From a plasmid, in sequence record NZ_CP049261.1: 64,000 bases of DNA; one strand, 5' to 3'. Positions 2,728-23,406 of the stretch are shown here, piece by piece. Position 1 is the stretch's first letter; every line of letters starts with the position of its first letter. Under the pieces are notes generated by a model. That model was given only the letters and a program-made list of their open reading frames with translations, made no database searches and had not been told where the DNA came from. Position numbers and translations under genes: made by a program.

Positions 2728-3402
2728 TTACGGTGCAATCTCCTGCCCGCGATAATCGATAAACCGGCACTGCAGATTATCCAGCGCGGCGTTGATGACG
2801 TTTTTCAGTCCAGCCGCGCTCTCGTCTACCGTCACCGGCGCACGTTCGCCGCCCATATCGGTCTGGACCCAGCCGGGATGCAGCAACAGCACGCTGCGTT
2901 TACCCGGCAGCGCCGATGTCACCGCGAATGAGCGCGCCAGCGAATTCAGCGCGCTCTTACTGGCGCGGTAGAGCGCCATGTCGCCGGTATCGTTATTTGT
3001 AAAGCTTGCGGTACTGGAGGACATAAACGCGATGACACCGCCTTCACGGACCTGCGAGAGCATCGTCTCCGCGAGTCGCACCGGTGCGATAGCGTTGGTC
3101 AGAAAGAGTGAGGCGATCTCCTGTTCGGTGGCCTGCGATACGCTCTGATGATCGGGGCCAAAAATACCGGCGTTGACGATGAGCGCGTCAAAGGTCACAG
3201 CGCTGAGGTGTTCTTTGAGGTGGACTACGCTTGCCGTGTCGGTCATATCGACGATTTGCGTGGTGATACGCGGATGGGTGTCTTTGTGCGTTGCGTCACG
3301 CACCGTCGCTATCACGTCGGCGCCCTCCTGCGCGAAAGCATTCGCCAGACCACGGCCAATCCCGCGCGATGCGCCGATAATCAGGATATGTTGTACAGTC
3401 AT
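2728..3402 (-). CDS. SDR family short-chain dehydrogenase/reductase
   Basis: N-terminal ILIIGASRGIGRGLA is a Rossmann TGxxxGIG motif. 224 aa. It converges on the helicase stop. Confidence 0.8.
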   Translation of the reverse strand: MTVQHILIIGASRGIGRGLANAFAQEGADVIATVRDATHKDTHPRITTQIVDMTDTASVVHLKEHLSAVTFDALIVNAGIFGPDHQSVSQATEQEIASLFLTNAIAPVRLAETMLSQVREGGVIAFMSSSTASFTNNDTGDMALYRASKSALNSLARSFAVTSALPGKRSVLLLHPGWVQTDMGGERAPVTVDESAAGLKNVINAALDNLQCRFIDYRGQEIAP

Positions 3403-3448
3403 GATTTTTTAACCTGCAATAATAATGAACCCATACTGATGGGCTTAA

Positions 3449-4018
3449 TCACTCCGCAAGGCGGTAGACCCCTGCTCCCCAGTAGCCTTTTTCCGGTTTA
3501 CGGATTTCACGCCAGCCCTGACGAACAAGGCTGCGGGCAATCAAACGATTCATGATGCCATGCCCCATCAAAAGCACCGGACTTTGCGCGTTACCGGCAA
3601 GCGCAGCGAGATTTTGCGCAGCCATTGCCGCGCGTGCTTTTGCGGCATGCAGCGTTTCAGCATTGCCCGATAACCCGCACAGCCATAACATGCGGAAAAT
3701 GCCACTCCAGGCCAGCGGCGACAAACGCAGCCTGCCAATACTGTGCACCGGCAGTTCTGCCTCCCGGTATAGCGCATCGGTTTGCACTGGATCACACCCC
3801 ATTGTTTTTAGAGAAGAGAGGGCACGAGGTAAATCGCTGCTGATAACAATGCCCGCTCTGGCTGCTAACGCGCGGCTTGCCTCAGGCGGTAAGTCATTCC
3901 CCGTACCGGCCTCGTTATAACGGCTTATCCAGCCTGGCATATCGCGGGAGCCGATCGCGCCTGAATGCGCTATATCAGGGCTGCCGTGACGCATCAGAAT
4001 AATTTCCATATCTTCCAT
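3449..4018 (-). CDS. histidine phosphatase family protein (SixA/PGAM-like)
   Basis: ILMRHG catalytic RHG motif near N-terminus and a C-terminal LLMGHG. Confidence 0.7.
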   Translation of the reverse strand: MEDMEIILMRHGSPDIAHSGAIGSRDMPGWISRYNEAGTGNDLPPEASRALAARAGIVISSDLPRALSSLKTMGCDPVQTDALYREAELPVHSIGRLRLSPLAWSGIFRMLWLCGLSGNAETLHAAKARAAMAAQNLAALAGNAQSPVLLMGHGIMNRLIARSLVRQGWREIRKPEKGYWGAGVYRLAE

Positions 4019-4030
4019 TCCACGGGTGGT

Positions 4031-4300
4031 TTACCTGGCGTGAAAAAAATATCCCACCAGCGCCAGTACCACCACAATAACGCCTGAGAAAATCGCTCCG
4101 CTGGCCCATGCGAAGGGAGCGATCTCTTCTTCTTTTTTGATATCCGCGTAACGCTTTAGTGCCTGCTCTGCCAGGGGCGCGTCAATCTCTTCGAACTGCT
4201 TTTCATAGCCTTTGGCTTTAAGCCGCGAGGCTTTTTCGGTATCGGCTTTATCGAACGCAAACAGCTGAGTGCCTTTCTTATAGAAGACAAATGTGGTCAT
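4031..4300 (-). CDS. small membrane-anchored protein of unknown function (about 90 aa, C-terminal TM helix)
   Basis: The ORF has an in-frame Met (MTTFVFYKK...). Charged lysine-rich middle and a hydrophobic tail IFSGVIVVVLALVGYFF. The longer 134 aa call is probably an upstream extension. Confidence 0.45.
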   Translation of the reverse strand: MTTFVFYKKGTQLFAFDKADTEKASRLKAKGYEKQFEEIDAPLAEQALKRYADIKKEEEIAPFAWASGAIFSGVIVVVLALVGYFFHAR

Positions 4301-4583: not shown

Positions 4584-6241
4584 TCAGAAGCTCTGCCAGT
4601 CGTTATCTGATACCGCGGCGGCGGCGGGCACCGGGCGCAGCGTTTTGATTGGCGTCACCGGCGCGGCGACATGACGCGCCGCGCTTTTCGCATGACTGGC
4701 GGCGGCGATGGTAAATGCACCAACCAGCTGGTTCAGGGATGCGGCCTGCTCCATCAGCGACTGCGACGCCGCCGAAGCCTGCTCGACCAGCGCGGCGTTC
4801 TGCTGGGTTACATCGTCCATCTGGTTGACGGCCAGATGCACCTGATTGATGCCCTGCGCCTGCTCCTGCGCGGCGACCGAAATCTCATCAACAATATCCG
4901 TTACCTGACGCACCGCCTCGGTCATTTTGCCGATATTCTGGCCGACGCCTTCCGCCTGCGCGGAACCGGTTTCGACGTATTGCATTGAGTTCTCAATCAG
5001 TTCTTTGATTTCCCGCGCGGAGGAGGACGAACGCTGCGCCAGCGTGCGCACTTCACCGGCCACCACGGCAAACCCTCTGCCCTGCTCGCCCGCACGCGCG
5101 GCTTCTACCGCAGCGTTGAGCGCCAGGATGTTGGTCTGGAAGGCAATCCCTCGATCATCGCGATAATGTCGGTGATTTTCGAGGAACTGTCGCGAATACT
5201 GCTCATGGTCGTCAGCATGGTATTGACGCGCGACTGGCTGTCTTCCGAAATATCACGCGCGTTTTTCGCAAGCTGGCTTGCAAGCTGGGTATTTTCCGCA
5301 GTCTGACGCACGGTTTCGCTCAGCTCTGACATGCTGGCGGCAGTCTGCTCCAGCGAAGCGGCCTGTTCTTCTGTGCGCGACGAGAGATCTTCGTTACCGG
5401 CGGAGATCTGCCCGGAGGCCGAGCTGACCGACTGCGCGGACGCTTCGACAGCGGCGAGTGATGAAGCCACATTGGCTGCCAGCGTATTGTACGCTTTGGC
5501 CGTCTGGCCTATCTCATCCTTACGGGAATCGTCAGCGCGCAGTGTCAGATCAAGATGCTCGCTCGCCGTTTCCAGCGTCTGGCGCATGCTGTTGAGCTGG
5601 TTGCGAATCGAGAAGATGGTCTTCAGCGTGAAAAAGCCGAGAATAAGGATGACCACTGCCGAGCCGCCAATCAGCGTCCAGAGCGTCTGGTAATAGGAGC
5701 TATCATTTTCCTTACGCAGCGTTTTGCCGACGTCAATGTTGACCCCCAGCTGTTTCTGGTACAGCGCGATCAACTGACGCGCGGCACCGCCGACACCGTT
5801 GTCATCACGCAGTGCGGCGAGCGCGAGAGCGTTGTTGTGTGCACGCGAGCTCTCTAAAAATGCCGGTAACCGGGACTGAACCGTCTGAATCAGCGTACCG
5901 GCGCTTTCAGAAATCTGCCGGTCTTCCTCGCTGGAGATTTCATTTTGCAGGTAAAACTGGTTCTGCGTGGTGATGCGGTTAATGACCGTATCAATCTCTT
6001 TTTCAATCTCGGCCTGACCTGATGCGTCAGCGGTATTCTGGTGGCGGTAGAGCCAGATAATTAATGTATTACTACCATCAATCATTTTGCCGATATCAAG
6101 CACCGACGGAAGCGTGTTTTCCTGGACGTACTGGAACCTTGCCTGAAAATTGCTGACGACCACTACCGATGTGATCACCATAGCGATCAGCGCGGCAGAA
6201 AGTAATGAAAACGTCAGCATAAGACGTTGTGTAATGGACAT
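4584..6241 (-). pseudogene. methyl-accepting chemotaxis protein (4HB sensor, HAMP, MCP signalling domain, C-terminal NDWQSF pentapeptide). Interrupted by one frameshift near 5140-5150
   Basis: 378 aa N-terminal ORF ends ...[13 protein letters not shown]. 160 aa ORF in another frame continues with the conserved [13 protein letters not shown]. Restoring one G in a GGG(G) run gives the canonical [37 protein letters not shown]. Confidence 0.85.
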
Positions 6242-6535
6242 GGAGTGTTTCCTCGGTGATGCTTATTTTTGCTGTATGGAGCCAGTGCTTAAATCAAACC
6301 GGCACAACGAATATCGGCAGCCAGGCATGCAATAATTAGCCTCCGGCAGACGCTTTCTCGTATGCCCATGATTAACAAAACATTAAATTTTTTAAAGTAA
6401 TGACCTGGGAATGGTGTGGGAATTTGTTGCGGTGCTTTTTTAGGCTCGCCACGGCGCTTTGCTCTAAGGTTTATGTCAGTAAGCGAAAGCCTGTGCGCCG
6501 TTGCACTGGCGTCGCCACACCTCAGGAGGCCTTTG

Positions 6536-7333
6536 TGATCACACTGTGTAACGCCTGCGGCACGTCATATCAGGTTGACAATGCCCGGCCACAGCGCTGC
6601 AAAATTTGTGACGATGAGCGGCAGTTTGTTCCGGTAACGGGGCAGCAATGGGTGGACCATGATGCGCTGCTGGCGACCCATTCCAATAAATGGAAGCAGC
6701 ATACCCCGGATCTTTTCAGCATCCGGACGGTGCCGGATTTTGCGATTGGCCAGCGTGCGTTTCTGCTGCGTACCCCGCAGGGAAATATTCTCTGGACTGC
6801 GTCGCCACCCTGGATGACGCCACAAAAACCCTGATTGCCGCGCTGGGCGGTCTGATGGCCATTGCCATTTCGCATCCGCACTTTTACACCACCATGCAGG
6901 ACTGGGCGGCCGCCTTTAACGCGCCGGTGTATCTGCATGCCAGCGACCGCGAATGGATAATGCGCGACAGCCCGTTTATCCGCCTCTGGGAGGGAGATGA
7001 ACTGACGCTGGCTGAGGATATCCGCGTGATTCGCCTCGGCGGCCATTTTGCCGGTGGCTGCGTACTGCATGACGCGCGCGGCGACGGCCTGCTGCTGAGC
7101 GGTGATATTTTGCAGGTGACGCCGGGGCGAAGAGCGTCTCATTTATGTGGAGTTATCCGAATATGCTGCCGCTACCGGCCGCCACCGTCAGCGCGATGAC
7201 AGACCGGCTGCGCGGCGTGTCATTTTCGACGCTATGGGGCGCGTTTGAAGGCCGTGAAATCACTGCCGACGCCAGCGAGCGGGTGCGCCGTTCGGGGGAA
7301 AAATATGTGGCGTGTCTGAATCGCGCGGATTAA
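6536..7333 (+). pseudogene. MBL-fold metallo-hydrolase with N-terminal Cys-rich Zn-ribbon. Two frameshifts
   Basis: GTG start with AGGAGG SD 8 nt upstream. CxxC...CxxC motif VITLCNACG...CKICDD. Middle fragment has AISHPHFY (HxH metal motif). Three ORF pieces in three frames, 6400-6834, 6690-7199 and 7145-7333, overlap head to tail. Confidence 0.65.
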
Positions 7334-7353
7334 CGCTTTTTATTTCGTGACGC

Positions 7354-8676
7354 TCAGGCCCGTTCATACGCGACCCGACCATCAACATAGGTGCGGTATA
7401 TCGCGCGATCGTCACCCAGCGTCATCATCACGAAAAGCTTATCAAACAGGGTCGCGGAATTGTCATAGCGGAGCTGCTGCAGCGGCGTTGAGGTCGGCTC
7501 CAGCACCACAAAATCGGCCTCTTTGCCGGGCATAAAGTTACCAATAAGATGATCAAGCCCCAGCGCTTTCGCGCCGCCGAGCGTGGCAAGATAGAACGCC
7601 TCGTCAGCGGATAACGGATAGCCCTGCAACTGCCCGACTTTGTATGCCTCGTTCAGCGTTTGCAGCATGTTGAACGTGGTTCCCGCGCCGATGTCCGTTC
7701 CCATTCCGACTTTCACTTTTTTCTGCCACGCTTTTGGCAGATTAAACAAACCGCTGCCGAGATAGAGATTAGATGTGGGGCAGAAAGCGATGCTGGAGCC
7801 CGTGTCTCGCAGGCGATCCCACTCGCGCTCTTCAAGATGAACACAGTGCGCGAAGATGCAGTTGTGCCCGGTCAGGCCATAGTGATGATACACATCCAGA
7901 TAGTCGTCACGCTCCGGATACAGCGTTTTCACCCACTCGATTTCAGCCTGATGTTCAGACAAATGCGTCTGGAACCAGGTATCCGGATATTCTTCGCGCA
8001 GGCGCTGCGCCATCGCCAGTTGTTCCGGTGTCGACGTCGGGGCAAAACGCGGCGTGATGGCATACAGCAGCCGCCCTTTTTTATGCCAGCGTTCAATCAG
8101 CGCCTTGCTCTGTTCATAACTGCTTTGCGCATCATCCAGTAGCCAGTCGGGCGCGTTGCGATCCATCATGACTTTACTGGCGATAAGACGCATATTGATT
8201 TGGCTGGCTTCCTCGAACAGCGCGTCCACTGACTGCGGATGCACTGAGCCAAAAACCAGCGCCGTTGTGGTGCCGTTTCGTAATAACTGCTTAATAAAAA
8301 AAGCGGACATTTCGCGCGCGTATTCCCGATCTTCATAGCGTCGCTCGGCAGGGAACGTATATTTATTGAGCCAGTCGAGGAGCTGTTCGCCATACGCGCC
8401 GACCATTTCACTCTGTGGGTAATGAATATGCGTATCGATAAAGCCCGGCACCACCAGTTTTCCGCGGTAATCACGCACGCGGACCGTATCCGGAACCTGT
8501 TGTTTTCCTTTTTCCCACTCACCGAACCATTCAATTTTCCCGTGACGAATCAGCAGTAAGCCGTCTTCCATAAACCGCAGCGCCGGTGCTATCTCCTGAG
8601 GCGTTTCAGCGGTCCTGGTGAAATCAATAAAACTGCCGCGTACGGCTTTTAAGGTCTGTTCTGCTGACATCATCAC
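7354..8676 (-). CDS. guaD: guanine deaminase
   Basis: 440 aa, collinear with E. coli GuaD along its length (VPGFIDTHIHYPQSEMVGAYGEQLL, GMGTDIGAGTTFNMLQTLNEAYKV, PGKEADFVV). TATACT -10 about 60 nt upstream. Confidence 0.95.
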   Translation of the reverse strand: MMMSAEQTLKAVRGSFIDFTRTAETPQEIAPALRFMEDGLLLIRHGKIEWFGEWEKGKQQVPDTVRVRDYRGKLVVPGFIDTHIHYPQSEMVGAYGEQLLDWLNKYTFPAERRYEDREYAREMSAFFIKQLLRNGTTTALVFGSVHPQSVDALFEEASQINMRLIASKVMMDRNAPDWLLDDAQSSYEQSKALIERWHKKGRLLYAITPRFAPTSTPEQLAMAQRLREEYPDTWFQTHLSEHQAEIEWVKTLYPERDDYLDVYHHYGLTGHNCIFAHCVHLEEREWDRLRDTGSSIAFCPTSNLYLGSGLFNLPKAWQKKVKVGMGTDIGAGTTFNMLQTLNEAYKVGQLQGYPLSADEAFYLATLGGAKALGLDHLIGNFMPGKEADFVVLEPTSTPLQQLRYDNSATLFDKLFVMMTLGDDRAIYRTYVDGRVAYERA

Positions 8677-8931
8677 CTCCTGCAGTCTGTCTTTTTTCTT
8701 CTGTGACTCTCTGTTGATGGGTTTTAATGCACTTTTCGTAGTATAGGATTTTCTCTCTGAGGGGCATTGCGATGGCGCACGTCATGTCCGGCGCACAGGC
8801 TGAAACGGCGTGCCTTTACCCTGCTAAGCCAAAAACCGTGCAGCGAATTAATGGTTTCACTACACCTTCGGAGTGGGACTGACGGAGTCAGGCCGTATCT
8901 CCGGCCTGCGGGTCCGCAGGAGCCGCCTGGC

Positions 8932-9888: not shown

Positions 9889-10290
9889 TCACCGGCCGTA
9901 AAAGCCGTCCAGATAGGTTTGCGCCAAATCGTCACCCAGCATCCGTTTTTCGCGCGGGCTGGTGTTGTCATCGAGAAACTGGCCGCGATGATTGGCAAAT
10001 TCACTGGTGGTCTGCATACCGCAGGCATCGTCACGGTAAGCCTTCGCCTGACGCTCTGCCCAGGCGATGTCGCGCCCCTGTGCTTTATCCGTTTTGCCCT
10101 GATTGTAGACGCTGGTAAATGCCGGCAGAAACGCGGCGATGCTGCCTGCTTTATCGACCCTTAAATTCGCGTCGTGTGATTCCATACCCTGCAAAACATA
10201 GTGGCGCGCGTGCATTTCTGGCGACGTTCTGGCCGTACATCCTGCCAACAGCGTAGCCACAGCCACAACTACCATTCCATAACGCCTCAT
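9889..10290 (-). CDS. lipoprotein of unknown function
   Basis: In-frame Met MRRYGMVVVAVATLLAGC with lipobox LAGC. AGGAAG SD upstream. The 159 aa call is an upstream extension. Confidence 0.55.
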   Translation of the reverse strand: MRRYGMVVVAVATLLAGCTARTSPEMHARHYVLQGMESHDANLRVDKAGSIAAFLPAFTSVYNQGKTDKAQGRDIAWAERQAKAYRDDACGMQTTSEFANHRGQFLDDNTSPREKRMLGDDLAQTYLDGFYGR

Positions 10291-10459
10291 ATTTTCTTCC
10301 TGAAGTTGTCTGTTTATCGTGTTGAGGCCCGGCGCATGTTGCTTTTGTGCGCTAACCCCATGTATCAAGCGACAAATATTACCGCGCTAAATACAGGGTT
10401 AATACATACCGAATCAGGGGATTGCGCGGACTCAGAAGACATGCATTTGTCCGATGCCC

Positions 10460-10493
10460 ATAAAAAAGCCGCGCAGGGTGAGCCCTGCACGGC
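10460..10493 (-). terminator. rho-independent terminator after MCP gene
   Basis: GCCGCGCAGGG-TGAG-CCCTGCACGGC hairpin, then a U-run (AAAAAA on + strand) 20 nt past the stop. Confidence 0.55.
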
Positions 10494-10513
10494 TTATCTG
10501 CAACATCCTCTCG

Positions 10514-12495
10514 TCAGCCCCTCTGCTGGCGGGTACTGAAGAATGCCAGCGCGGTTTCCAGCGCTTTCGCCTGCTCTTCAAGCGACATCGCCGCGGCCGA
10601 AACCTGCTGCACCAGCGAGGCGTTCTGCTGGGTCACGCTGTCCATCTGATTCACCGCCACGCTAATTTGATCCACGCCGCGGGTCTGTTCATCCAGCGCC
10701 CGCACGATTTCATTGATAGCCAGATGAACGCTGGTCACGGCTTCGATTATCTGTTTCATCGTTGAGCCGGTTTCATTGACCAGCGTCACACCCTGCCCGA
10801 CGCGACCGGTCGATTCTGCGATGAGTTGCGAAATTTCCTTCGCCGCGTTGGCGCTGCGGCTCGCGAGCGTGCGAACTTCACCGGCCACGACGGCGAAACC
10901 GCGCCCCTGCTCACCGGCGCGTGCCGCTTCCACGGCCGCGTTCAGCGCCAGAATGTTAGTCTGGAAGGCGATGCTGTCGATGATGCTGGTGATGTCGCTG
11001 ATTTTCTGCGAACTCTCATCCACCTGCGACATCACATGCACCACGCGATCGACCAGCGCTTCGCCCGCACCGGCGATATCTTTCGCGTGCTCCGTCAGCA
11101 CAATGGCGCGTGAAGCGCTTTCGGCGTTGTTTTTCACCGTCGCGGAAATTTCTTCCATGCTGGCCGCCGTCTCGACAATTGCCGCCGCCTGCTCCTCGGT
11201 GCGGGAGGCGAGATCGGTATTGCCTGCGGCGATTTCACTGCTGCCGGCGCGCACGGAATGACTGGCGTCGCTGATATCGCCGACAATCTCGCGCAACCGC
11301 GACTGCATGGTGCTTAACGCATAAAAGATGCTCCGGGTATCGCCCTGCTGTACCGGAATCGCGTTATTCAGGTTGCCATGCGCGACAGAGAGCGCGATTT
11401 CGGACGCCTCCAGCGGCTCACCGCCCACCGGGCGCGCCACTTTGCGGGTAAACACCAGCGCCACCACCAGGCTCACAACCGCGATGCTCAGCACCATCAG
11501 AATGAGGGCATTGATAAGCCCTGCCAGGCTTCGGCCATCACCACGCTCACCGGCGTGACCACCGCCAGCTTCCACGGCGTGCCGCTGTTGCCCACGGCAA
11601 TCGTGTTCCAGGTGATAAACGCCGGTTCGCCCAGCACCGGGTCGTCATAGCGAATCACTTCGCGGCCCGTCACAGTGCCCTTATAAGGCTTGCCGATAGT
11701 CGCTTTATCCGGCGCGGAGATCACTTTATTGTCAGCCGAGAGGAGCAGCGCATAGCCCACGCCATCCCAGGGTTTGATCGCGCCCACCATTCTTTGCAGC
11801 GTTTCGAGAGAGAAATCGGACGTCACCGAGCCCTGGAATTTGCCGTCGCGCATTATCGGGGCGGCAATCGAGGTCAGCATCACATCCACGCCGTTGTACG
11901 GGTAAATGTACGGCTCGATGATGACATCTTTCTGGCGCTGACGCGGGAGGACGTAATAGTCACCGCTGCCGGGCGTTTCATAATCCACCAGATTATGCAG
12001 CGCCGGGTTACCTGCACTGTCACGATCCACATAACGCGCATAGCGCCCTTTGGGATCCTGGCCCGCCTGCCCTGCAAACGTGGCGTCGTTGGCATCAAAC
12101 GCGTTGGGTTCAAAGGTCAGTGACATCGATAAAAAATCATCATGCGCACGCAGAAAGCTGACTAACAGCTGCTCCAGGCCTTTACGATCGTTAAGCCCGG
12201 ACTCACGCAGCGACCACGCGCTGATACCCACATCGCGCGCGGCGGTTAACGCCGAATCCAGACGACGGCTCACCTCTAAGGTTTCCGTTTGCGCAATTTG
12301 TTGCAGGTGTTTTTTCGCGACATATTCCTGCTGCGACATCGATTGCCAGAGCAGTAAACCCATCGTGATACCAAAGCCTGCGGTTATCGTGACGAAAATC
12401 GATAACAGCATGAGGGTTTTGGTCTTAAGCCTTCTTTTCGAAGGATGCTGAGCGATCATTCTCTTCTCCCGGACGCCGCCAGAAAGGCGGGACAT
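10514..12495 (-). pseudogene. methyl-accepting chemotaxis protein with periplasmic dCache_1 sensor. One frameshift near 11500-11575
   Basis: N-terminal 332 aa ORF has TM-Cache-TM. C-terminal 353 aa ORF has HAMP plus the conserved signalling domain ([40 protein letters not shown]). The two ORFs overlap 11497-11575. Confidence 0.85.
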
Positions 12496-12630
12496 ATTTA
12501 CTCACTATCGGCAACTATCCAGGAAGCCTTATGCGTACAGGCCATTAAATTTTCTTAACGCAAACGGGTCGGAATAAGCGAAACGGGGAAACGTATTACG
12601 ATCAACGAGAAGGGAAACAGACTGGATTCA

Positions 12631-12667
12631 GAAAAAAAGCGGGCCGCCTGACATCGCAGCGGCCCGT
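12631..12667 (-). terminator. rho-independent terminator after AAA+ gene
   Basis: CGGGCCGC...GCGGCCCG stem followed by 7 U (A7 on + strand). Confidence 0.55.
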
Positions 12668-12819
12668 AAACAGAATATTGGCTAAGGTGCCCCTTTTCCT
12701 GATGATGCTATCGTAGCGCCATAACCTTAAGGGAAACTTAAGGCATAAGTTAAATCTTAAATATTTACAAAGCGCGCGTTCCGCAGGCAATAAAACGATG
12801 GGCATCCGCGCCCGCACGA

Positions 12820-13590
12820 TCAGGACTCAACAAATTCCAGTTTCGCTTTTACGCGTTCAAGCGACTGAAGATAATCGATATTCTCAATAAGTTGATGTAA
12901 TTCCCGGGTTTCGCCGCCCGACGCCGCCAGCGCATCTTTAATAAAAGGCGAATGGCCGAAACGATGTAAGATCACATTTTTCTTTTGCATCCCGTTCAGC
13001 GAACAGAGTGTGATATAGCGGAAGCGTTTTTTATACGTGGCGTCATTTTTCAGTTTTTCCGTCGCCTCACAGGGCGCGGAAATAATGCAGCGGAACGGCG
13101 TCATCAGATACGGCTTAAGCAAGTTCAGTAAGCGCATTCCCGGCGACATCTCGTCGTTTTCCGGCGTGAACGCGTGCGTGCCATCCAGATACAGTATGAC
13201 CTTATACCGCCCGGCGAGCGCCACGGCGAGTGCCAGCTTTTTCTCTATCTCTTCCTCACTGGCATTCCCGGCAAACAGCGACACCATATTTATTTCAGCC
13301 AGATGGCACCCTGGCTGGATCTGCAACAGGTAACGCGAGAGATTACGGACAAAACAGGATTTGCCAACCCCTTCATTTCCCGATACCACCAGGCTGTTGG
13401 TATTACGGCATGACAGAATCGCCAGCGCCGAAAGAATTTCCGTTTCGCGATACATCACGTCAGGAATATTTCCGACCGCAAGCATAGCCATCAAATCGGT
13501 GGCGTGAATGCCGTTCTCTTCCAGCCCGGAATAAAACGCCTTCCTGTCATGTTGTGGCTCAATCGTGAACAAATTGTTAGGTGGTGTCAT
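12820..13590 (-). CDS. stand-alone Clp/Hsp100 D1-like AAA+ domain protein with degenerate Walker B (predicted pseudo-ATPase), in an AT-rich islet
   Basis: 256 aa. Walker A GNEGVGKS. Collinear with ClpB D1 ([30 protein letters not shown] vs [58 protein letters not shown] vs [27 protein letters not shown]). Walker B is ILYLDGTH in place of ILFIDELH, so the catalytic Glu is lost. It is flanked by about 550 bp of AT-rich non-coding DNA. Confidence 0.55.
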   Translation of the reverse strand: [256 protein letters not shown]

Positions 13591-14106
13591 TTTATTTTCC
13601 TTAAGCGTGTAATTACAAATGTAATAATCCCGGCCTCATTCATTACGGAATAAGGCCTTTGATCGCGCTACGCTTTTATCTTTAAGAATAATGATGGCGC
13701 CAGTGAGCAGACACGATTTATCCGACGCCAGAGCCATTTCTGCCTGCGTTTTTACGTGTCTTTTCTGCGCATTACGATGTTAAAAGCGTCCCGTTGAATA
13801 CCCCATGTAGGTTTTGCATCTCCCGTCAGGCTTGCAGGTCATCAATACCCGACGAGATTGCATCAGGAAAACTTGATAATTAAGTATCACTAAAATTTGA
13901 TTTAGCGTGAAGATAGGCAAAAATCTTAAAGCCGTCAACCGCCGAAATAATTATCGATAAATAAGTTATTCCTTATCCCGTGAATCGGCGAATTAAGATT
14001 TTCCTCAGTATTAATTCCGGAAATAAAGCGGTAATTTGTCCTGTTATTTTTTGACGCGGTTAAACACTGACGTCACCGAAATGACCGCAACCTGCCATGC
14101 GTACAC

Positions 14107-14133
14107 AGAAAAAACCCTGCCGGAGCAGGGTTT
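14107..14133 (-). terminator. rho-independent terminator after permease gene
   Basis: AACCCTGC-CGGA-GCAGGGTT hairpin followed by a U-run. Confidence 0.6.
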
Positions 14134-14160
14134 GTTGCGCAATAAGATGCAAATCGCGTA

Positions 14161-15416
14161 TCAGAACGTACTGTAAAGCAGCGCGGACACCGTGAGCAGG
14201 CCACCGGTGGCGACCATGACAGCCGTCGGGCCGCGCAGTGAACGCAGCGCATCGCGGGTGTAAATGAGGTACGTCGGGATCAGGAAAAGAAAGATGGCGG
14301 TCAGCGGTCCGCAGACTGTCTCAATCAGCGTAATCACGTCCGGGTTAAGATCCACCACGCCGAATGTCGCGATAAACATCGCGAGGAACGCGAGCGTCTT
14401 CGCCTGTTTCTTCATGCCTGCGTGCCCGGCCACCAGCGCCGTAATGGTTTCCGCAACAGGCAGGCACACGCCAAGAAACGATTTCGTCATCCCGACGATG
14501 GCAATAAAAGGCGCGATCATAAACAGCAGATCCAGGCCGCCCTGGCTTTGCATCACCGAGAGCATATTGAGGTTTTCCGCTTTCGCCCGGGCGAAGGTGG
14601 CCGGAGGGTTCGCGAGAAGGCAGCTCAGCACAAAGAACACGATGCTGAAAATGATCAGCGCATAGGCCACACGCACAACCCGCACCGACTTCATCTCGCC
14701 GCCATGACCACTCTCGCGATAATATGACGCCAGCGGCGCAATCAGCGGCGCAGAGCAGAGCGCGAAAGAGATAAGCGGCAGCGTCAGCCAGATATTTTTA
14801 AACGCCTCACCGGCGGGCTCGCCAGCCGGGATGAGCGGCATACTGAAATTCGCCAGGCTCCAGGCGGGGATCTGGATAACCGCTATCAGCAGCAGCGACA
14901 ACGCAAACGGCAGCGCCAGCGCACCCATCATACTCACCACTTTGTCACGGCCTTTACTGAGCGCCAGGAATAAAGCCGCGACGACAATAAACGCCAGCAG
15001 TGCGCGGTTCACCGGGGCGAAATGCAGACGATTAACCAGATAATCCGAGAGCGCGTTAACCAGCGAAATGGCATAGACCAGGGTGACCGGGAAATGGGCG
15101 ACGCAGAAGAAAACACGAATTGCCGTTCTCCCCTTTGCGCCGAAAAATGCGCCAAAAAGCGGTAACGTACCGTCATCGGGCTGGTTGTCGCGCATAAATA
15201 CACGGCAGATTAGCACATGCGGCACCAGCGAGAGGGAATGCCCAGCACCAGCAGCAGAAGAAAAACCAGCGGGCCGCGCGTGCCGATTTCGACAGGAAGG
15301 AACAGTGTCCCTGCGCCAACGGTGGCACCATAAACGCCCAGCATCCAGAGGGTATCTCTGAATGTCCAGCCGGTACGGGCAGGCAGGCTGCTGTCCGTAG
15401 TGGTTGATATTGTCAT
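14161..15416 (-). pseudogene. HAAAP-family amino-acid permease (SdaC/TdcC-like serine/threonine transporter). Frameshift about 60 codons in
   Basis: 68 aa ORF (15210-15416) carries the N-terminus TFRDTLWMLGVYGATVGAGTLFLP, matching SdaC [23 protein letters not shown]. The remaining 11 TM in ORF 14161-15225 are in another frame. Confidence 0.8.
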
Positions 15417-15623: not shown

Positions 15624-18338
15624 TCAGAACCACTGTCCAAATTTGCGGATGTACAGCCGTTTCATGCCCTGCACGACCACACAATAGGTGAAAAGAATCC
15701 CCACCAGCCACGGGAAATAGCTCAACGGCAAGGGCACCAGTCCAATCATATGGCCGAGCGGCGAGAACGGAATGGCGATGCCGACTGCCATCACGATCCC
15801 TGTGGTTATCAGCACCGGCAGCGCGGCGCGGCTCTGAATAAACGGGATTTTCCGGGTACGCAGCATATGCACCACCAGCGTCTGCGACAGCAGCCCTTCC
15901 ACAAACCACCCGGACTGAAAGAGCGACTGCGCCGCAGGCGAGTTGGCGGCAAACACAAACCACATCACCGCAAAGGTCGCCATATCGAACAGCGAGGACG
16001 TCGGCCCCATCCAGATCATAAAGCGCTTAATATTCTGCGCATCCCATTTACGCGGCTGACGCAGAAACGCCTTATCCATGCGATCCCAGGGCAGCGAGAG
16101 CTGCGAAATGTCGTACATCAGGTTCTGCACCAGCAGATGAATGGCCAGCATCGGCAGGAACGGCAGAAACGCGCTCGCCACCAGCACCGAAAAGACATTG
16201 CCGAAGTTAGAGCTGGCGGTCATGTTCAGGTATTTGATGATATTGCCGAAGGTCTCGCGCCCGGTCAGCACGCCCTGCTCCAGCACCATCAGATCTTTTT
16301 CCAGCAAAATGATATCCGATGACTCTTTGGCGATATCCGCCGCGCTGTCAACCGAAATCCCGACATCCGCATCGCGCAGCGCCGGCGCGTCGTTAATGCC
16401 GTCGCCAAGGAACCCAACCGTGTGGCCGTTATTTTGCAGCGCCCGCAGAATGCGGGATTTCTGCAATGCCGTCAGCTTCGCGAAAATCGCACAGCGTTCA
16501 ACCGCCACAGCAAGCTGCGCTTCGTCCATATCGTCAATGACATCGCCCGTCAGGATCTCGCGGCGGTCGATCCCTACCTGCTCGCAGATGCAGGCCGCCA
16601 CCAGCGGGTTATCCCCGGTCAGCACCTTCACGGTAACGCCGTGCTCATGGAGCGCTGAGATCGCCTGCGCCGCGCTCGCTTTTGGCGGATCGAGAAACGT
16701 CAGCATCCCTTCAATAATCAGCCCGTTTTCGTCCGCCACGCAGAGGGGATGATCAAGCCCGGTCTGTGGCAGTTCGCGTGTCGCCACCACCAGCACCCGG
16801 AAGCCCTGCGCGTTGTACTGGAGCGTTAAGCGCAGGTACGCGTCGCGGCGCGCCTCATCAAGCGCATACACCGTGTCGCCCTCGCGGATATGCGTCGAGA
16901 CAGAGAGCATCTCTTCAACGGCACCCTTGCAGATAAGCGTCTGCTGATGCTCGCCATACCCTTCCACCACCACAGAAACGCGGCGGCGTACAAAATCAAA
17001 CGGCAGCTCGTCAATTTTGAAATAGCCGGATTGTATCGATGGTGAAAGCGCGGCCTGCCCGGACGCCAGTACCGCCTTGTCCATCAGGTTTTGCGAGCCG
17101 CTCAGGTTGACGCTGTTCAGCCAGGCAAGTGTGAGCACATGCAGGCTGTCGCGGCCGTGGCAGTCGAGATGCTTTTCAAGAACAATCGAGTCCTGGGTGA
17201 GCGTGCCGGTTTTATCGGTACAGAGCACATCCATCGCGCCAAAATTCTGTATGGCGTTCAGGCGCTTCACAATCACCTTGCGACGGGCCATGACAATCGC
17301 CCCCTTCGCCAGATTAGAGCTGACAATCATCGGCAGCATTTCTGGCGTCAGCCCCACCGCGACGGCCAGCGCGAAAAACGTGGCGTCCAGCCAGTCGCCT
17401 TTGGTGAAGCCGTTGATGAGCAGCACCACCGGCACCATCACCAGCATAAAGCGGATCAGCAGCCAGCTGACACTGTTCACGCCTTTATCAAACGCCGTCT
17501 GGGTGCGGTTGCCGACGAGCGATTTCGCAAGCGATCCGAAATACGTTTTCGCGCCGGTCGCCACCACCACGCCGCAGGCGGTGCCGCTCGCGACATTGGT
17601 GCCCATCAGACAGATATTGCCCCGCTCCAGCAGGCTGGCGCTGTCGTCATGGATATCGTCTGCGCTTACGCCTTTCCCCTGCACATGGCCGGTGACGTCA
17701 TATTTTTCCACCGGCAGCGACTCGCCGCTCAGTATCGCCTGGCTGATAAACAGATCCCGTGAGGCAATGAGCCGTAAATCCGCCGGGATCAGATCGCCCG
17801 CCGAGAGAGTCACGATATCGCCCGGCACCAGCTCCTCGACCGGGATTTCCCGTTTCTCGCCGTCACGGTTGCTGACGGTACGGCGCAGCACGGTCGCCGT
17901 CGTGCTTACCATCGATTTCAGCGCCTGCGCGGCTTTATTGGTGCGAAACTCCTGCCAGAAGCGCAATAAGCCGCTCAGCAACACCATCGTCACAATGGTA
18001 ATAACGCCGGTCAGATCGGTCTCCTGCCCTGCGCGCAGCGGATACCAGTAATCGGTAAAGAAACTGATCAGCGCCAGCGCCATCAGCACATAGATAAACG
18101 GGTTGTTGAACGCCTGGAGCAGTTGCACCAGCGCGGGCGGCGCGTTGTCATGCGCCACGGCATTCGGGCCATAAGCGGCAAGGCGCGCCTGCGCCTCTTT
18201 TTCCAGCAGTCCTTTTTCGCTGCTTTCCAGCCGCGCTACTGTCTCTTGCGGGCGCTCTGCGGAGGCCATTTCGATGCAAAACGTCGCCGCCTGTTTTTTT
18301 GCGGCATTATTCATTTTTCTGGAATTGTACTTTGCCAT
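15624..18338 (-). CDS. mgtA: magnesium-transporting P-type ATPase
   Basis: 904 aa. P-type ATPase IIIB signatures: DKTGTLT phosphorylation site, TGDN, GDGINDAPAL. There are 10 TM. Size and order match MgtA/MgtB. Confidence 0.9.
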   Translation of the reverse strand: MAKYNSRKMNNAAKKQAATFCIEMASAERPQETVARLESSEKGLLEKEAQARLAAYGPNAVAHDNAPPALVQLLQAFNNPFIYVLMALALISFFTDYWYPLRAGQETDLTGVITIVTMVLLSGLLRFWQEFRTNKAAQALKSMVSTTATVLRRTVSNRDGEKREIPVEELVPGDIVTLSAGDLIPADLRLIASRDLFISQAILSGESLPVEKYDVTGHVQGKGVSADDIHDDSASLLERGNICLMGTNVASGTACGVVVATGAKTYFGSLAKSLVGNRTQTAFDKGVNSVSWLLIRFMLVMVPVVLLINGFTKGDWLDATFFALAVAVGLTPEMLPMIVSSNLAKGAIVMARRKVIVKRLNAIQNFGAMDVLCTDKTGTLTQDSIVLEKHLDCHGRDSLHVLTLAWLNSVNLSGSQNLMDKAVLASGQAALSPSIQSGYFKIDELPFDFVRRRVSVVVEGYGEHQQTLICKGAVEEMLSVSTHIREGDTVYALDEARRDAYLRLTLQYNAQGFRVLVVATRELPQTGLDHPLCVADENGLIIEGMLTFLDPPKASAAQAISALHEHGVTVKVLTGDNPLVAACICEQVGIDRREILTGDVIDDMDEAQLAVAVERCAIFAKLTALQKSRILRALQNNGHTVGFLGDGINDAPALRDADVGISVDSAADIAKESSDIILLEKDLMVLEQGVLTGRETFGNIIKYLNMTASSNFGNVFSVLVASAFLPFLPMLAIHLLVQNLMYDISQLSLPWDRMDKAFLRQPRKWDAQNIKRFMIWMGPTSSLFDMATFAVMWFVFAANSPAAQSLFQSGWFVEGLLSQTLVVHMLRTRKIPFIQSRAALPVLITTGIVMAVGIAIPFSPLGHMIGLVPLPLSYFPWLVGILFTYCVVVQGMKRLYIRKFGQWF

Positions 18339-20464: not shown

Positions 20465-23406
20465 TTGATGGCGCGTCACGTTTCCGGGCTGCTGAAAGCG
20501 GTCTGTTTCCTCTTTGTTTTTGCCGTGCTGTTTGCAGTGACGCTCTCCTCTGCCCGCGCGCTTTCCACCGCGTGCACGGCGCTGAACGCGGCAAGCCCGG
20601 TGAGTTCCGGCCTCAGCACGTACAACGCCAGCAGTTTCAGCGCAGATGAAACTCTCACCGTCTCGTTTACCGACAGTGGCGCGGGTACAGGCGGCCTGCC
20701 GATGAATGCGGATACCGTCATCATGCAATCCCGTGACTTCTCGCAGCATTATCTGATGCATTACAGCTCCGATGGCAATGCGGGGAGTTTCAGCACCACG
20801 CTGACCGGCGCACAGCTCACGGCGGGCGGACTCTGGTTAAAAGTCTCAACGGCCAACGGCTTTATCAGCCCGGTGACGGTTTCCTGTACTGCGGCGGCCA
20901 CGCTCTCCTCCGATGCCACGCTGAGCGGGCTCTCGTTTTCCGGCGGCGCGCTCTCGCCTGGCTTCTCAGCCAGCAACACCAGCTACCACGCGACGGTCGA
21001 TTACGCGGTCTCCTCGGTGACGCTGACGCCAGTTACCACCCACAACGCCTCCACTGTCACCGTGAATGGCAACGTCGTGTCTTCCGGCTCCGCATCGCCC
21101 TCTGTCAACCTGAGCGTGGGTACCAATACCCTCACGATCGTCGTAACCGCCGAAGATGGCACCACCAAAAACTACAGCGTTGTTATCCAGCGCAACGAGC
21201 AGACGCCCGTGGCGGGTAACGTCAGCGCGCAGGTGGCGTCCAACAGTCAGAATAACCCCATTGCACTCGCGCTCTCCGGCGGCACCGCAACGGCGGTGAA
21301 TCTGGTTAGCCCGCCGCAGCACGGCACGCTGATGATTTCCGGTACGACGGTTACGTACACGCCGCTGGCCGGGTATAGCGGCAGCGACAGTTTTACCTAC
21401 AACGCCAGTAACAGCGCGGGCACCTCGGCGAACGCCACAGCATCGCTGACCATTACCGCGCCCGCGGCCGTGACGATATCGCCCGCCAGCGGCGCGCTTA
21501 CGCCTGCCACCGTGGGCAGCGCCTGGTCGCAGAACGTTTCCGTCACCGGCGGCACAGCGCCTTATATCTGGACTGCGCATGGCCTGCCGGCAGGTATCAC
21601 GCAGAACAGCGCGACCGGCGCGCTCTCCGGTACGCCCACCACGTCCGGCAGTTTCAGCATTTCGCTGACCGCGCAGGATGCCGCGGGCGTTTCTTCCACC
21701 GTAACCTATACGCTGGTGGTATCAAACGGCGCGCCACCTGACGCCACGCTCGTGATGACGCCAGCGGCGGGCGCGCTCCCGTCCGGCACCGTTGGCACGG
21801 CCTTATCGCAGACGTTCGCGGTGAACGGCGGCGCTGCGCCATATCGCTGGCAGCTGAGCGGCTCGCTGCCCGCTGGGCTCACTTTCTCCGGTGGCCTCCT
21901 GAAAGGCACGCCGGGCGTGGCAGGCGACAGCGCCTTTACGCTGTCAGTCACCGATGCGAACGGCACCACGGTTCACGCTGCCTACACGCTGCGCATTAAC
22001 GCCGCGGCGGCACAGGCGGTGGATCAAAGCGCGTCGCTCTCTGCCGGGCGCGTGACCCGCGTGTCGCTCACGCGTGGTGCCACCGGCGGCCCGTTCACCG
22101 GCGCGCGTCTGCTGGCCCCCCGGATAAACGCCAGGGCACGGCCAGCATCCAGCCGCAGGGTGGCGATTACGAACTGACATTTACCGCCGCGCCGCAGGCC
22201 AGCGGTACCGTTGTGCTGCGCTATGTGTTGTTAAGTGCTTCGGGCATTACGTCACCTGCGACCATTACGTTCTCCATCGCCTCACGCCCCGATCCGTCGA
22301 AAGACGCCAGCGTGACGGGCACCGTCAGCGCGCAGTACCAGGCGGCGCAGAACTTCGCCCGCGCGCAGATCCGCAACTTCAACGATCGCCTTGAACAGCT
22401 GCACGGCAGCGAAGACGTACCGTCCAGTCTGAATGGCGTCCACTTCGCCCTGCCCTCCTCGCCGGCGGAACGCGGGCTGGATACCGATCTCTGGAACGCC
22501 GCGCTTCAGCAGCAGGCGCAGCTGGATGCGCAGAACAGTCTGCCGCCTGCGCTGCCATTTGGCATGCAGACGCCTGGCCAGCGGCTCTCTTACTGGACGG
22601 GCGGCTATGTCGATTTCGGGCGCGATAAAGACGCGACGATGCGCCTGAGCCATACGCTGGTGGGCGTCAGCACCGGCGTGGATTACCGCTTCACGCCCAC
22701 CGTGACGGCAGGTGTGGGAATGGGGTTCGGGCGCGACGTCAGCGATATCGGCGACACCGGCACCCGCAGCAATGGCCGCTCACTGAGCACCGCGCTGTAT
22801 GCGAGCTATCACCCGGACGCGGTTTTCGTCGACGGGCTGTTAGGTTACAGCCGCCTCGATTTCGACAGCAAACGCCACGTGAGTGAAACAGATGTGTATG
22901 CGCGCGGCAGCCGCGCCGGCAGCCAGGTCTTTGTCGCGCTGACCTCCGGCTACGAATTCCGCCTGCCGCAGAGTCTCGTCTCGCCGTATGGCCGCGTGCA
23001 GATTTCAAAGACGCATCTGGAGAGCTACAGCGAATCGGATGCGGGCATGTATAACCTGGCGTTCGCGCCGCAGCGTTTTTCACAGGTGACGGGCAGCGCG
23101 GGCCTGCGCGCCGAACACCGTGTACCGGTAAGCTGGGGCGATCTTCGTCTGCAAAGCCGCGTGGAGTATTCACGCCTGATGAATGACACCGGCAGCGCGC
23201 GCGTCGGGTATGCCGATACCGGCAACGACACCTGGCGCCTGTCGCTGTATGAGCAAAATCGCCAGACGCTGGCGCTTGGCGTCGGGCTTGATATGGCGCT
23301 ACCGAATGGCGTCACGCCTGGGCTTGCGTATCAGGGTACGCTGGGGCTGGATGACAGAGGTTCACGCGCCCAGACCATCATGGCGCGCATGAACGTGGCG
23401 TTTTAA
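20465..23406 (+). pseudogene. autotransporter adhesin with cadherin-like/Ig-like passenger repeats and C-terminal beta-barrel. Frameshift in a C6 homopolymer at 22116-22121
   Basis: Signal peptide at the N-terminus. The passenger has repeated (S/T)-rich units of about 90 aa of the 'putative Ig / dystroglycan-type cadherin-like' kind. The second ORF (22213-23406) is an autotransporter beta-domain ending ...MARMNVAF. Adding one C to the C6 run fuses the two ORFs into one frame. Confidence 0.8.

Follow-up and report, generated by a model that had tools for sequence, protein, structure and literature searches.

A conserved D1-only Clp/Hsp100-like AAA+ protein of the Cronobacter virulence plasmid, a probable pseudo-ATPase stranded from a ThiF cassette

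The window, by which we mean the whole 64-kb stretch of DNA that was analysed, drops in GC content at 12496-14160, to 46.5% against 58% window-wide. This is essentially the lowest-GC 1665-bp stretch of the 64 kb, with 0.06% of such windows equal or lower, and it bears out the AT-rich islet described in the initial annotation of the sequence. Here lies a gene, called the AAA gene below, that starts with ATG and encodes a protein of 256 aa by ORF call; public records label its product solely 'AAA family ATPase'. A Ser/Thr-transporter gene is upstream and a dCache chemoreceptor gene is downstream. The features of the segment are these:

12506..12531, minus strand: sigma-28 (FliA)-type promoter, TAAGGCTT-N11-GCCGATA, of the downstream dCache chemoreceptor gene
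12630..12666, minus strand: intrinsic terminator of the AAA gene, with an 8-bp GC stem CGGGCCGC/GCGGCCCG, an 11-nt loop and a T-run (stem part 12640-12666)
12667..12760, minus strand: conserved 3' UTR segment, with the hairpin CCTTAAG-N5-CTTAAGG at 12725-12743
12820..13590, minus strand: AAA gene, for a 256-aa D1-only Clp/Hsp100-like AAA+ putative pseudo-ATPase (ORF and translation, homology, AF2/Foldseek, motif census, dN/dS)
13571..13646, minus strand: conserved 5' leader directly before the start codon (alignment of 8 Cronobacter loci)
13598..13602, minus strand: Shine-Dalgarno-like AAGGA, 8 nt before the ATG
~13610-13624, minus strand: palindrome ATTACAtttGTAAT inside the 5' leader (same alignment)
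13876..14052, minus strand: near-invariant block of ~175 nt, comprising the promoter-like site and DNA upstream of it, presumed regulatory (genus alignment)
13910..13938, minus strand: predicted sigma-70-like promoter, TTGACG-17 nt-TATCTT (promoter scan)
13948-13963, minus strand: palindrome centred on TTATCGATAA in the ~175-nt block
13990-14017, minus strand: inverted repeat GAATTAA-N14-TTAATTC in the same block
14109..14136, minus strand: terminator of the upstream Ser/Thr-transporter gene, conserved in the genus

The initial annotation had given the gene a terminator of its own and an AT-rich upstream region, and both are there, the former as the stem at 12640-12666 with its T-run and the latter as a spacer of 570 bp. 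Both hexamers of the promoter predicted in that spacer are invariant genus-wide, with a predicted start near 13903 and a predicted 5' UTR of ~310 nt, and the ~175-nt block around it is far more conserved than the synonymous sites of the CDS, where dS goes to ~2.0. At the aligned Shine-Dalgarno position AAGGA or AGGGA, always A/G-rich, is found in 8/8 Cronobacter sequences. Conservation extends to the stem of the AAA terminator, in which C. dublinensis and C. condimenti have compensatory CG to UA changes, and the 3' UTR segment next to it may belong to the mRNA 3' end or to a 3'-UTR-derived small RNA. An Rfam scan of the spacers returned nothing, its sole match being istR at E 0.83, and consensus scans of the upstream spacer for Fur, CRP, ArgR, LexA and FNR did not rise above shuffled controls. 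The terminator of the transporter gene at 14109-14136 isolates the AAA gene transcriptionally on one side. On the other, the FliA-type promoter is a single exact match in the window where 0.23 are expected by chance, is largely conserved genus-wide, and marks the chemoreceptor gene as a separate transcription unit. The promoter-like block and the terminators predict that the AAA gene is a transcription unit of its own.

Both neighbouring genes had been described as frameshifted, and in this sequence they are, each by a 1-nt homopolymer deletion found in this sequence only:

11518: CCCC to CCC, splitting the gene of a 648-aa chemoreceptor
15233: GGGG to GGG, splitting the gene of a 418-aa Ser/Thr transporter

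At least 13 homopolymer deletions of this kind, affecting many genes, fall within 21 kb of the window, and in each of the related Cronobacter plasmids examined both neighbours are annotated as intact or form full-length ORFs. Hence the two frameshifts are probably assembly errors and not biology, and the picture of an islet between two pseudogenes loses its meaning.

Pfam AAA (PF00004) matches residues 68-191 of the AAA protein with a score of 26.7 bits, above its cutoff of 21.2, and there is no Pfam match to Clp_N in it. The NCBIfam models for ClpA, TssH and ClpB match residues 29-194 at scores far under their equivalog cutoffs (39.3 bits versus 993, 35.1 versus 885 and 33 versus 1232, respectively), with only positions ~170-345 of these models being covered. 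PDB matches are to the D1 of ClpB/Hsp104/ClpC/ClpA with E down to 2e-13, at an identity to Clp D1 of only ~20-30%. The AF2 model has a pLDDT of 87, with residues 1-12 disordered and D1 running from about residue 14. Foldseek, a check proposed with the initial annotation, superimposes it on the D1 of ClpC/ClpB/ClpA with a TM of ~0.7 over ~250 columns, the matches being chains of these proteins or isolated D1 (NBD1) fragments. A lid motif at residues 231-240, near the C-terminus, aligns with the Clp motif 'PDKAIDLIDEA', which closes the D1 small subdomain. The AAA protein is a complete single D1-type AAA+ module made of a large alpha/beta subdomain and a short helical lid. PHROG gives one strong match only, to the Clp-like protease ATPase family, and the PADLOC models of anti-phage defence give no significant match (best E 0.011, confined to the P-loop).

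Set beside the D1 of class-I Clp/Hsp100 proteins (ClpB/Hsp104, ClpA, ClpC, ClpV/TssH), the AAA protein is collinear over the large subdomain and short lid and has in common with it a Walker A of the form GxxGxGK[ST], the Walker B Asp, the RF Arg-finger region and the C-terminal 'AIDLIDEA' alignment. It differs from the full-length proteins in having no N-domain, M-domain or D2, and its 256 aa form one module, not the D1 and D2 in one chain of that class. As had been reported of the locus, an N-domain, a D2 and a Clp partner are absent, and no other Clp-like gene occurs anywhere in the 64-kb window.

The motifs divide into those kept and those replaced. Walker A is intact as GNEGVGKS (G71-S78). 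Walker B reads LDGT, where at D136-G137 the Asp is kept and the Glu is lost, invariantly in all orthologues. The pore-loop Tyr-Arg is replaced by S111-E112 here and by S-E/A among orthologues, the sensor-1 Thr-Thr is replaced by A172-P173, and of the two Arg fingers, at K188-R189, one is kept (R189). Hence where a D1 catalytic set would have DE, a sensor-1 Thr, a pore aromatic and paired Arg fingers, the AAA protein has DG, AP, S-E and KR. Homology, fold and motif census thus agree with the first description of a stand-alone Clp-D1-like module of 256 aa with an intact Walker A and a DG Walker B; its statement that the sensor region is conserved is right for the Arg finger R189 and wrong for sensor-1, where TT has become AP, and the pore-loop YR is lost as well. 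Among 163 aligned homologues, D-G and A-P occur only in the eight Cronobacter sequences, and in all the others Walker B is DE (or DD) and sensor-1 is TT or a conservative variant of it. Among the 135 long homologues the Walker B E is present in 131/135, alongside TT, a pore Y or other hydrophobic, and RR. A second C. turicensis plasmid carries a paralogue that is 38% identical and also dead by its motifs, and that the P-loop is kept in both this and the Cronobacter clade at so low a mutual identity argues that nucleotide binding is still selected.

Conservation in related genomes had also been proposed as a check. In every Cronobacter species examined the same 256-aa ORF occupies the same syntenic place on its pESA3/pCTU1-type IncFIB plasmid, the AAA gene is in 26/26 of the PLSDB Cronobacter plasmids that carry the region, its length of 256 aa is invariant across 7 species, and the replaced motif residues are invariant across the Cronobacter orthologues. 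Across these 7 species dN/dS is 0.05-0.15 with dS up to ~2.0, which is at or below the dN/dS of mgtA, the transporter and the chemoreceptor; the dS of the AAA gene exceeds that of its neighbours and is saturated in the deepest pairs, so the ratios for those pairs are approximate. Purifying selection on the AAA gene is strong, and the gene belongs to the core of the Cronobacter pESA3/pCTU1-type IncFIB virulence plasmid. There is one record, pCTU1 of C. turicensis z3032, in which it is annotated as two CDSs, and a 140-aa partial form of the protein exists; either loss is tolerated or those sequences contain errors.

In codon composition the AAA gene is atypical, and AT-rich, with a GC3 of 59% versus 74% for mgtA. 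The horizontal acquisition proposed from the low GC is thus plausible in the sense of a low-GC foreign origin, but, to judge by the synteny, the acquisition is old: the arrangement is the same in every Cronobacter species examined, which places it before their divergence. A search of E. coli genomes for similar DNA found none, and scans of genome contigs yielded 0 confirmed relatives.

Relatives of ~250 aa were recovered in a search of 1.84 billion representatives, and most of them are metagenome singletons. The AAA protein belongs with them by its length (~230-290 aa in the family), by a common N-terminal extension, by the C-terminal LHxLIDxID[FY], and by its grouping in a neighbor-joining (NJ) tree, where the Cronobacter clade is nested within the short family and the members of that family form a clade apart from the full-length Clp proteins. 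Its profile E-values to members P0008-P0011 run from 1e-45 to 3e-21. A named relative, WP_207806716.1 from plasmid pOC5aB of Pantoea ananatis OC5a, is 35% identical to the Cronobacter protein over 227 aa (E 7e-52). The catalytic motifs of the family members are intact at 8/8 informative loci, reading YRGEFE, DEAH, TT and RRF.

At 8/8 informative loci (L012/13, L014, L015, L016, L017, the P0013 contig, L022 and L024 of Pantoea ananatis) the gene for the D1-only protein adjoins a ThiF gene. It stands immediately upstream of this PaaA/MccB-like ThiF gene, usually overlapping it, and an exporter gene (MFS or ABC) overlaps or adjoins it. At L024, on pOC5aB, the cassette with its precursor, MFS, AAA and ThiF genes occupies 5719-8774. 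The ThiF protein has its best match to PaaA 5ff5 (2.8e-32, full length), and also matches MccB. These cassettes also contain a precursor-like ORF of ~31 aa, with a leader common to such ORFs, and 3/5 of these ORFs end in Asn, as MccA does. An all-against-all comparison finds the partner proteins homologous across five metagenomic loci, and in two cassettes there is a RimL/MccE-like GNAT. With ThiF, exporter and precursor-like ORF the cassette resembles a peptide-antibiotic cassette of the microcin-C/pantocin type; its points of likeness to the biosynthetic clusters of microcin C (MccB) and of pantocin A (PaaA) are the short precursor-like ORF, the ThiF, the MFS exporter and, in some cassettes, the GNAT. 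No AAA+ gene is known from an mcc or paa cluster. A literature search found nothing that pairs an AAA+ protein with a ThiF-type RiPP enzyme, and nothing on the Cronobacter AAA gene or its expression. The D1-only family of ~250 aa and its cassette are apparently undescribed.

The initial annotation named a Clp partner as absent, but what accompanies the relatives is a PaaA/MccB-like ThiF and an exporter. Neither these nor any other mcc- or paa-type gene is in the window: no homologue of the ThiF, MFS or precursor occurs anywhere in its 64 kb, a search of the AT-rich spacers for a remnant ThiF or precursor found none, and no cassette-type ThiF or MFS is on any Cronobacter plasmid in PLSDB. The Cronobacter protein, which is like the family in length, N-terminal extension and LHxLIDxID[FY], differs from it in that its ATPase and pore-loop motifs are no longer intact and none of the three partner genes is present, its neighbours instead being a Ser/Thr transporter and a chemoreceptor with signals of their own. 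The 418-aa membrane neighbour was considered as a diverged cassette MFS and rejected; it does not resemble the MFS proteins of the cassettes in sequence and is assigned to the Ser/Thr transporter family TIGR00814. No gene co-varying with the AAA gene outside the Cronobacter plasmid backbone was identified. A dCache gene is downstream of the AAA gene in both dead lineages; the two sensors have no detectable sequence similarity, so the idea of an AAA-dCache conserved pair was dropped and the pairing left as coincidence.

We regard it as fairly probable that the AAA gene is a stranded and repurposed cassette component, whose product would be a selected pseudo-enzyme that binds ATP without hydrolysis, and not a decaying fragment. 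The relatives are intact ATPases in cassettes, and this points to a Cronobacter copy that was stranded and repurposed instead of a broken clp gene. The ancestor would have been a D1-only ATPase of ~250 aa, with complete catalytic motifs, in a cassette with a PaaA/MccB-like ThiF. From the Cronobacter lineage and the 38%-identical C. turicensis paralogue the ThiF, exporter and precursor would then have disappeared. In the protein itself the P-loop would have survived together with the Walker B Asp and a single Arg, whereas the Walker B Glu, sensor-1, the Tyr-Arg of the pore loop and the other Arg finger would be gone. Going by its motifs, such a pseudo-ATPase should bind ATP and neither hydrolyse it nor thread a polypeptide, from which we infer that it may act by nucleotide-dependent binding or scaffolding of a partner, with no remodelling of a substrate. 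It would be a natural case of an AAA+ module that selection has retained although four separate functional motifs are gone, and a good subject in which to ask what such a module, hydrolysis-dead and pore-less, is still capable of. As a conserved and apparently regulated pseudo-ATPase rather than debris, it merits study by deletion and by interaction assays.

The opposite view takes the gene for a non-functional relic, be it a piece of some larger clp gene or a dead cassette gene on its way to loss by drift, and could appeal to the lost catalytic motifs, the AT-rich and atypical codon composition and the split in the z3032 record of pCTU1. The initial annotation had itself named the case that would make it a remnant, namely the tail of a larger clpV/clpB-like gene in relatives, and in all relatives there is instead the same ORF of ~250 aa, at a dN/dS of 0.05-0.15. 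The entire family is of that length, so nothing is truncated in the Cronobacter protein, and drift fits poorly with a 256-aa length that is the same in 7 species, with substituted motif residues that are themselves invariant, and with a promoter block and terminator that are conserved, the latter with compensatory changes. We consider a relic highly improbable. Nor do we give much credit to a role as modulator of the housekeeping Clp machinery, in which a D1-only protein would co-assemble with or cap rings of ClpB, ClpA or ClpV and poison them, tune them or donate an Arg finger. The D1 fold with its P-loop and one Arg finger is in keeping with this, as is the 'decoy/regulator' idea of the initial annotation, but the identity to Clp D1 is only ~20-30%, the family evolved separately in ThiF cassettes as a clade apart from full-length Clp, there is no Clp gene nearby, and the protein is without the N-domain and D2, which contribute to hexamer assembly in Hsp100 proteins.

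A more specific proposal, unlikely but deserving of some weight, is that of an orphan immunity protein or decoy, a dead ATPase kept to bind and neutralise a peptide-nucleotide product, microcin-C- or pantocin-like, of competitors' cassettes such as those of Pantoea. The closest intact relatives are in just such cassettes, where the PaaA/MccB-like ThiF is joined by an exporter, by a precursor-like ORF and in some cases by a RimL/MccE-like GNAT; Pantoea and Cronobacter, two genera of Enterobacterales associated with plants and food, both have the genes on plasmids; a P-loop pocket retained without catalysis suits a binder of nucleotide conjugates; and orphan immunity genes retained in non-producers are a parallel. 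There is also a precedent for a partial Clp homologue as an antibiotic decoy in mycobacterial ClpC2, a partial homologue of ClpC1 that binds cyclomarin A and sponges a ClpC1-targeting antibiotic (PMC10030653). It is like the AAA protein in concept, being a stand-alone, fragment-sized Clp homologue that has no unfoldase activity and acts by binding (PMC10030653), although its counterpart in ClpC1 is the N-terminal domain rather than D1, and it is homologous to the AAA protein only via the Clp family. Against immunity, the AAA protein of the cassettes still has the pore loops and a complete catalytic set, and the gene for it comes right before the ThiF gene, usually overlapping, which points to a biosynthetic partner; a separate GNAT in two cassettes could supply immunity; and there is no known product for any such cassette. 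Carried further, the proposal makes the 'trapped' D1 module an orphan factor for resistance to, or sequestration of, a new class of peptide-nucleotide antibiotics from AAA-ThiF-exporter cassettes (for example that of pOC5aB), the cassettes being a new RiPP class that combines a Clp-D1-like unfoldase with a PaaA/MccB-type enzyme; in this extended form we hold it to be slightly less probable again. Tracing the relatives has in any case revealed an apparently undescribed cassette of precursor-like ORF, exporter, D1-only Clp-like ATPase and PaaA/MccB-like ThiF, one open to heterologous expression, and Pantoea ananatis OC5a is a named, cultivable host of it.

The AAA gene (12820-13590, minus strand; ATG start, with AAGGA 8 nt 5' of it) encodes a predicted D1-only AAA+ pseudo-ATPase of 256 aa. 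In sequence searches, similarity is confined to D1, the first of the AAA+ modules in class-I Clp/Hsp100 proteins: the protein passes the Pfam AAA cutoff of 21.2 bits with a score of 26.7, NCBIfam models for ClpA, TssH, and ClpB cover residues 29-194 at 33-39 bits (cutoffs near 900-1200), and PDB D1 chains of ClpB, Hsp104, ClpC, and ClpA give E values down to 2e-13. The AlphaFold2 model has an alpha/beta core and a three-helix lid (pLDDT 87, pTM 0.84), and Foldseek aligns it to D1 of ClpC, ClpB, and ClpA over about 250 columns with a query TM-score of about 0.7. The D1 small subdomain of Clp proteins is closed by a PDKAIDLIDEA motif, and the C-terminal motif of the window protein aligns with it; given that and the length of the fold match, the protein is a whole D1 module and no mere piece of one.

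For a motif census, 163 homologues were placed on one profile, including 135 long Clp proteins, 8 Cronobacter sequences, and other short relatives. The window protein retains an intact Walker A, GNEGVGKS, along with D136 as the Walker B Asp and R189 as one Arg finger. The Walker B Glu has been replaced by G137, the two sensor-1 Thr by A172-P173, the pore-loop Tyr-Arg by S111-E112 (the second position varies between species), and the first Arg finger by K188. The replacements S111, G137, A172, P173, and K188 are invariant in the genus. Among the 163, D-G and A-P occur in the 8 Cronobacter sequences alone; the long Clp proteins, all 135 of them, and without exception the remaining short relatives have DE (DD in four) with TT or a conservative variant. 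The initial annotation had correctly read an intact Walker A and a DG Walker B, but called the sensor region conserved, where TT has become A172-P173. What it observed is confirmed, and its interpretation holds in part: the description of a dead, stand-alone, Clp-like module is supported, and the alternative of a remnant of a clp gene is not.

The initial annotation had itself named the finding that would refute a distinct gene, namely relatives in which it forms the tail of a larger clp gene. The Cronobacter relatives examined instead carry the same 256-aa open reading frame, with a dN/dS of 0.05-0.15. An orthologue of 256 aa, 77-91% identical, is present in every Cronobacter species examined (C. 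sakazakii, malonaticus, universalis, turicensis, muytjensii, dublinensis, and condimenti, plus strain JZ38), and all loci examined have one synteny of mgtA, a 418-aa transporter gene, the AAA gene, and a 648-aa dCache chemoreceptor gene. The AAA gene is under purifying selection, its pairwise Nei-Gojobori dN/dS range applying at dS 0.6-2.0; for these same species pairs, mgtA gives 0.08-0.18, the transporter 0.05-0.18, and the chemoreceptor 0.02-0.07. On pCTU1 of C. turicensis z3032, two abutting CDSs (285 + 486 nt; L020, the pCTU1 locus, 3335-4104) are annotated where the AAA gene belongs, and the gene is full length in other C. turicensis sequences; the split reflects a disruption specific to this strain or else an error in sequencing. 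A 140-aa partial form of the protein is also on record.

When 1.84 billion representative proteins were searched with a profile, a set of stand-alone proteins, 230-292 aa long, ranked above the bulk of the full-length Clp matches. These short relatives resemble the window protein in their N-terminal extension and in the LHxLIDxID[FY] motif at the C-terminus, but unlike it they retain YRGEFE, DEAH, TT, and RRF. Genomic context is readable at eight independent loci, each with a ThiF-family gene directly after the AAA gene and usually overlapping it. An MFS gene lies beside the pair at seven, upstream and overlapping in six of these; the eighth has an HlyD-type protein and an ABC exporter with an N-terminus similar to a C39 peptidase domain, together with a GNAT and a LuxI/LuxR pair. 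The best match of the cassette ThiF, aligned over its full length, is the pantocin A biosynthesis protein PaaA (5ff5, E 2.8e-32), followed by MccB of microcin C. Upstream of five cassettes there is a precursor-like open reading frame of 31-34 aa with a good ribosome-binding site and a common leader, xKVKTxxVIxKVxxLSKxxV, followed by variable tails that end in Asn in three of the five. Some cassettes include a RimL/MccE-like GNAT, a DUF455 protein, or LuxI/LuxR. As the ThiF and MFS proteins are homologous among five metagenomic loci (all-against-all) and the leader of the precursor-like frame is shared, the components behave as a co-inherited unit. The cassettes are located as follows:

L024, 5719-8774: plasmid pOC5aB of Pantoea ananatis OC5a, a named, cultivable organism; the AAA protein encoded there, WP_207806716.1, shares 35% identity with the window protein
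L014, 648-3717: further cassette
L015, 220-3297: further cassette
L016, 4640-7969: further cassette
L017, 3514-8476: further cassette
L022, 2626-8380: further cassette
L012, 8001-10978: further cassette

An AAA+ partner of ThiF-type peptide-modifying enzymes was not found described in the literature. This cassette is apparently undescribed so far and may represent a peptide-antibiotic (RiPP) class of its own that is new.

In a neighbour-joining tree the Cronobacter clade falls within the short family, adjoining a Pantoea-like group. The Cronobacter gene is an orphan without cassette partners: no cassette ThiF, MFS, or precursor homologue was found in the 64-kb window, and the cassette-type ThiF is absent from all Cronobacter plasmids in PLSDB. 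A second dead lineage is represented by P0007, a 38%-identical paralogue that stands alone in very AT-rich DNA (30-40% GC) on a second C. turicensis plasmid, of Rep3/ParM/PsiAB type (L008 10001-10768). Its Walker B is FDGS and its sensor-1 SAP, like the dead motifs of the window protein, which places the predicted loss of catalysis before the split of the two lineages. Chiefly because both keep a canonical P-loop, there is reason to think that nucleotide binding is still selected. Both genes lie just upstream of a gene for a dCache-domain sensor, a GGDEF protein in the case of P0007; no sequence similarity between the two sensors is detectable.

Lacking the catalytic Glu and sensor-1, the window protein should bind ATP-Mg without hydrolysis, much as Clp proteins do when turned into Walker B "trap" mutants in the laboratory; lacking the pore-loop aromatic, it should not grip or thread polypeptide. 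We consider it probable that the protein is a pseudo-enzyme acting by nucleotide-dependent binding or scaffolding, repurposed once the cassette partners were lost, the uncertainty being mostly on mechanism.

Non-producers often retain orphan immunity genes, and this makes it attractive to view the protein instead as an orphan decoy or immunity factor against a cassette product. ClpC2 is a precedent for such a role (PMC10030653). However, the decoy or immunity role is weakened by the intact relatives, which look like partners of ThiF in biosynthesis, and we regard it as unlikely. That the protein modulates ClpB, ClpA, or ClpV rings seems to us improbable, and that a gene with this dN/dS is a decaying relic, very improbable indeed.

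The window matches pESA3/pCTU1-type IncFIB plasmids of Cronobacter, at 98% identity to C. sakazakii plasmids and 80-92% to those of other species, where the sole label of the gene is "AAA family ATPase". The islet 12496-14160 is, as first noted, more AT-rich than its surroundings (46.5% GC vs 58% across the window), essentially the lowest GC in 64 kb, with just 0.06% of 1665-bp windows equal or lower; GC at third codon positions is 59% in the AAA gene vs 74% in the neighbouring mgtA. The flanking features are:

12506-12531, minus strand: sigma-28 (FliA)-type promoter, exact and textbook-type, TAAGGCTT-N11-GCCGATA, 5' of the downstream dCache chemoreceptor gene
12630-12760, minus strand: 3' UTR of the AAA gene, a CCTTAAG/CTTAAGG hairpin and the terminator with compensatory changes
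12640-12666, minus strand: terminator of the AAA gene, 8-bp GC stem and T-run, 3' of the gene
13876-14052, minus strand: non-coding block of about 175 nt, 5' of the AAA gene, nearly invariant genus-wide
13910-13938, minus strand: promoter-like site TTGACG-17-TATCTT, inside that block
14109-14136, minus strand: strong terminator, ending the upstream transporter gene
14161-15416, minus strand (L006, a related locus, 10165-11421): HAAAP-type Ser/Thr transporter, 418 aa (TIGR00814, E 2e-76)

The stem of the terminator that had been credited to the AAA gene is kept genus-wide with compensatory CG to UA changes. The 3' UTR is more conserved than synonymous sites of the gene and matched nothing in Rfam; it is a candidate 3'-UTR-derived small RNA. 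The upstream block is nearly invariant even in C. condimenti, whose synonymous sites are saturated, and also holds, 5' of the promoter-like site, a palindrome centred on TTATCGATAA and a GAATTAA-N14-TTAATTC inverted repeat; the final 75 nt or so ahead of the ATG are likewise conserved. Consensus scans of the upstream spacer for Fur, CRP, ArgR, LexA, and FNR gave none above shuffled controls. These conserved putative terminators, promoter-like sites, and repeats argue for a separate transcription unit with regulated expression. The sigma-28-type promoter is largely conserved across Cronobacter, and the plasmid-borne chemoreceptor is a probable member of the flagellar class III regulon.

As for the "FRAMESHIFTED neighbours" of the initial annotation, the frameshifts are present in the sequence, at 11518 (C4 to C3) and 15233 (G4 to G3), but they look like homopolymer errors. 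Set against a 98%-identical C. sakazakii plasmid, 21 kb of the window (4041-24996) shows single-base deletions at 13 sites or more (for example at 5147, 6793, 7126, 11518, 15233, 22115, 24364, and 24838), which split many genes: two chemoreceptors, an MBL-fold hydrolase, the Ser/Thr transporter, an autotransporter (20465-23406), and glgX. Almost all fall in homopolymer runs, and of the two sequences it is nearly always the window that is shorter, a pattern that points to systematic under-calling in sequencing or assembly and not to pseudogenisation. The AAA reading frame is untouched, and the frameshifted neighbours are without bearing on it. In many RefSeq plasmid records the 418-aa TIGR00814 transporter carries the label "AAA family ATPase", apparently through an error in annotation. 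In mgtA, a +1/-1 indel pair 2 nt apart (17808-17810) relative to other C. sakazakii plasmids retains the frame and alters one or two residues.
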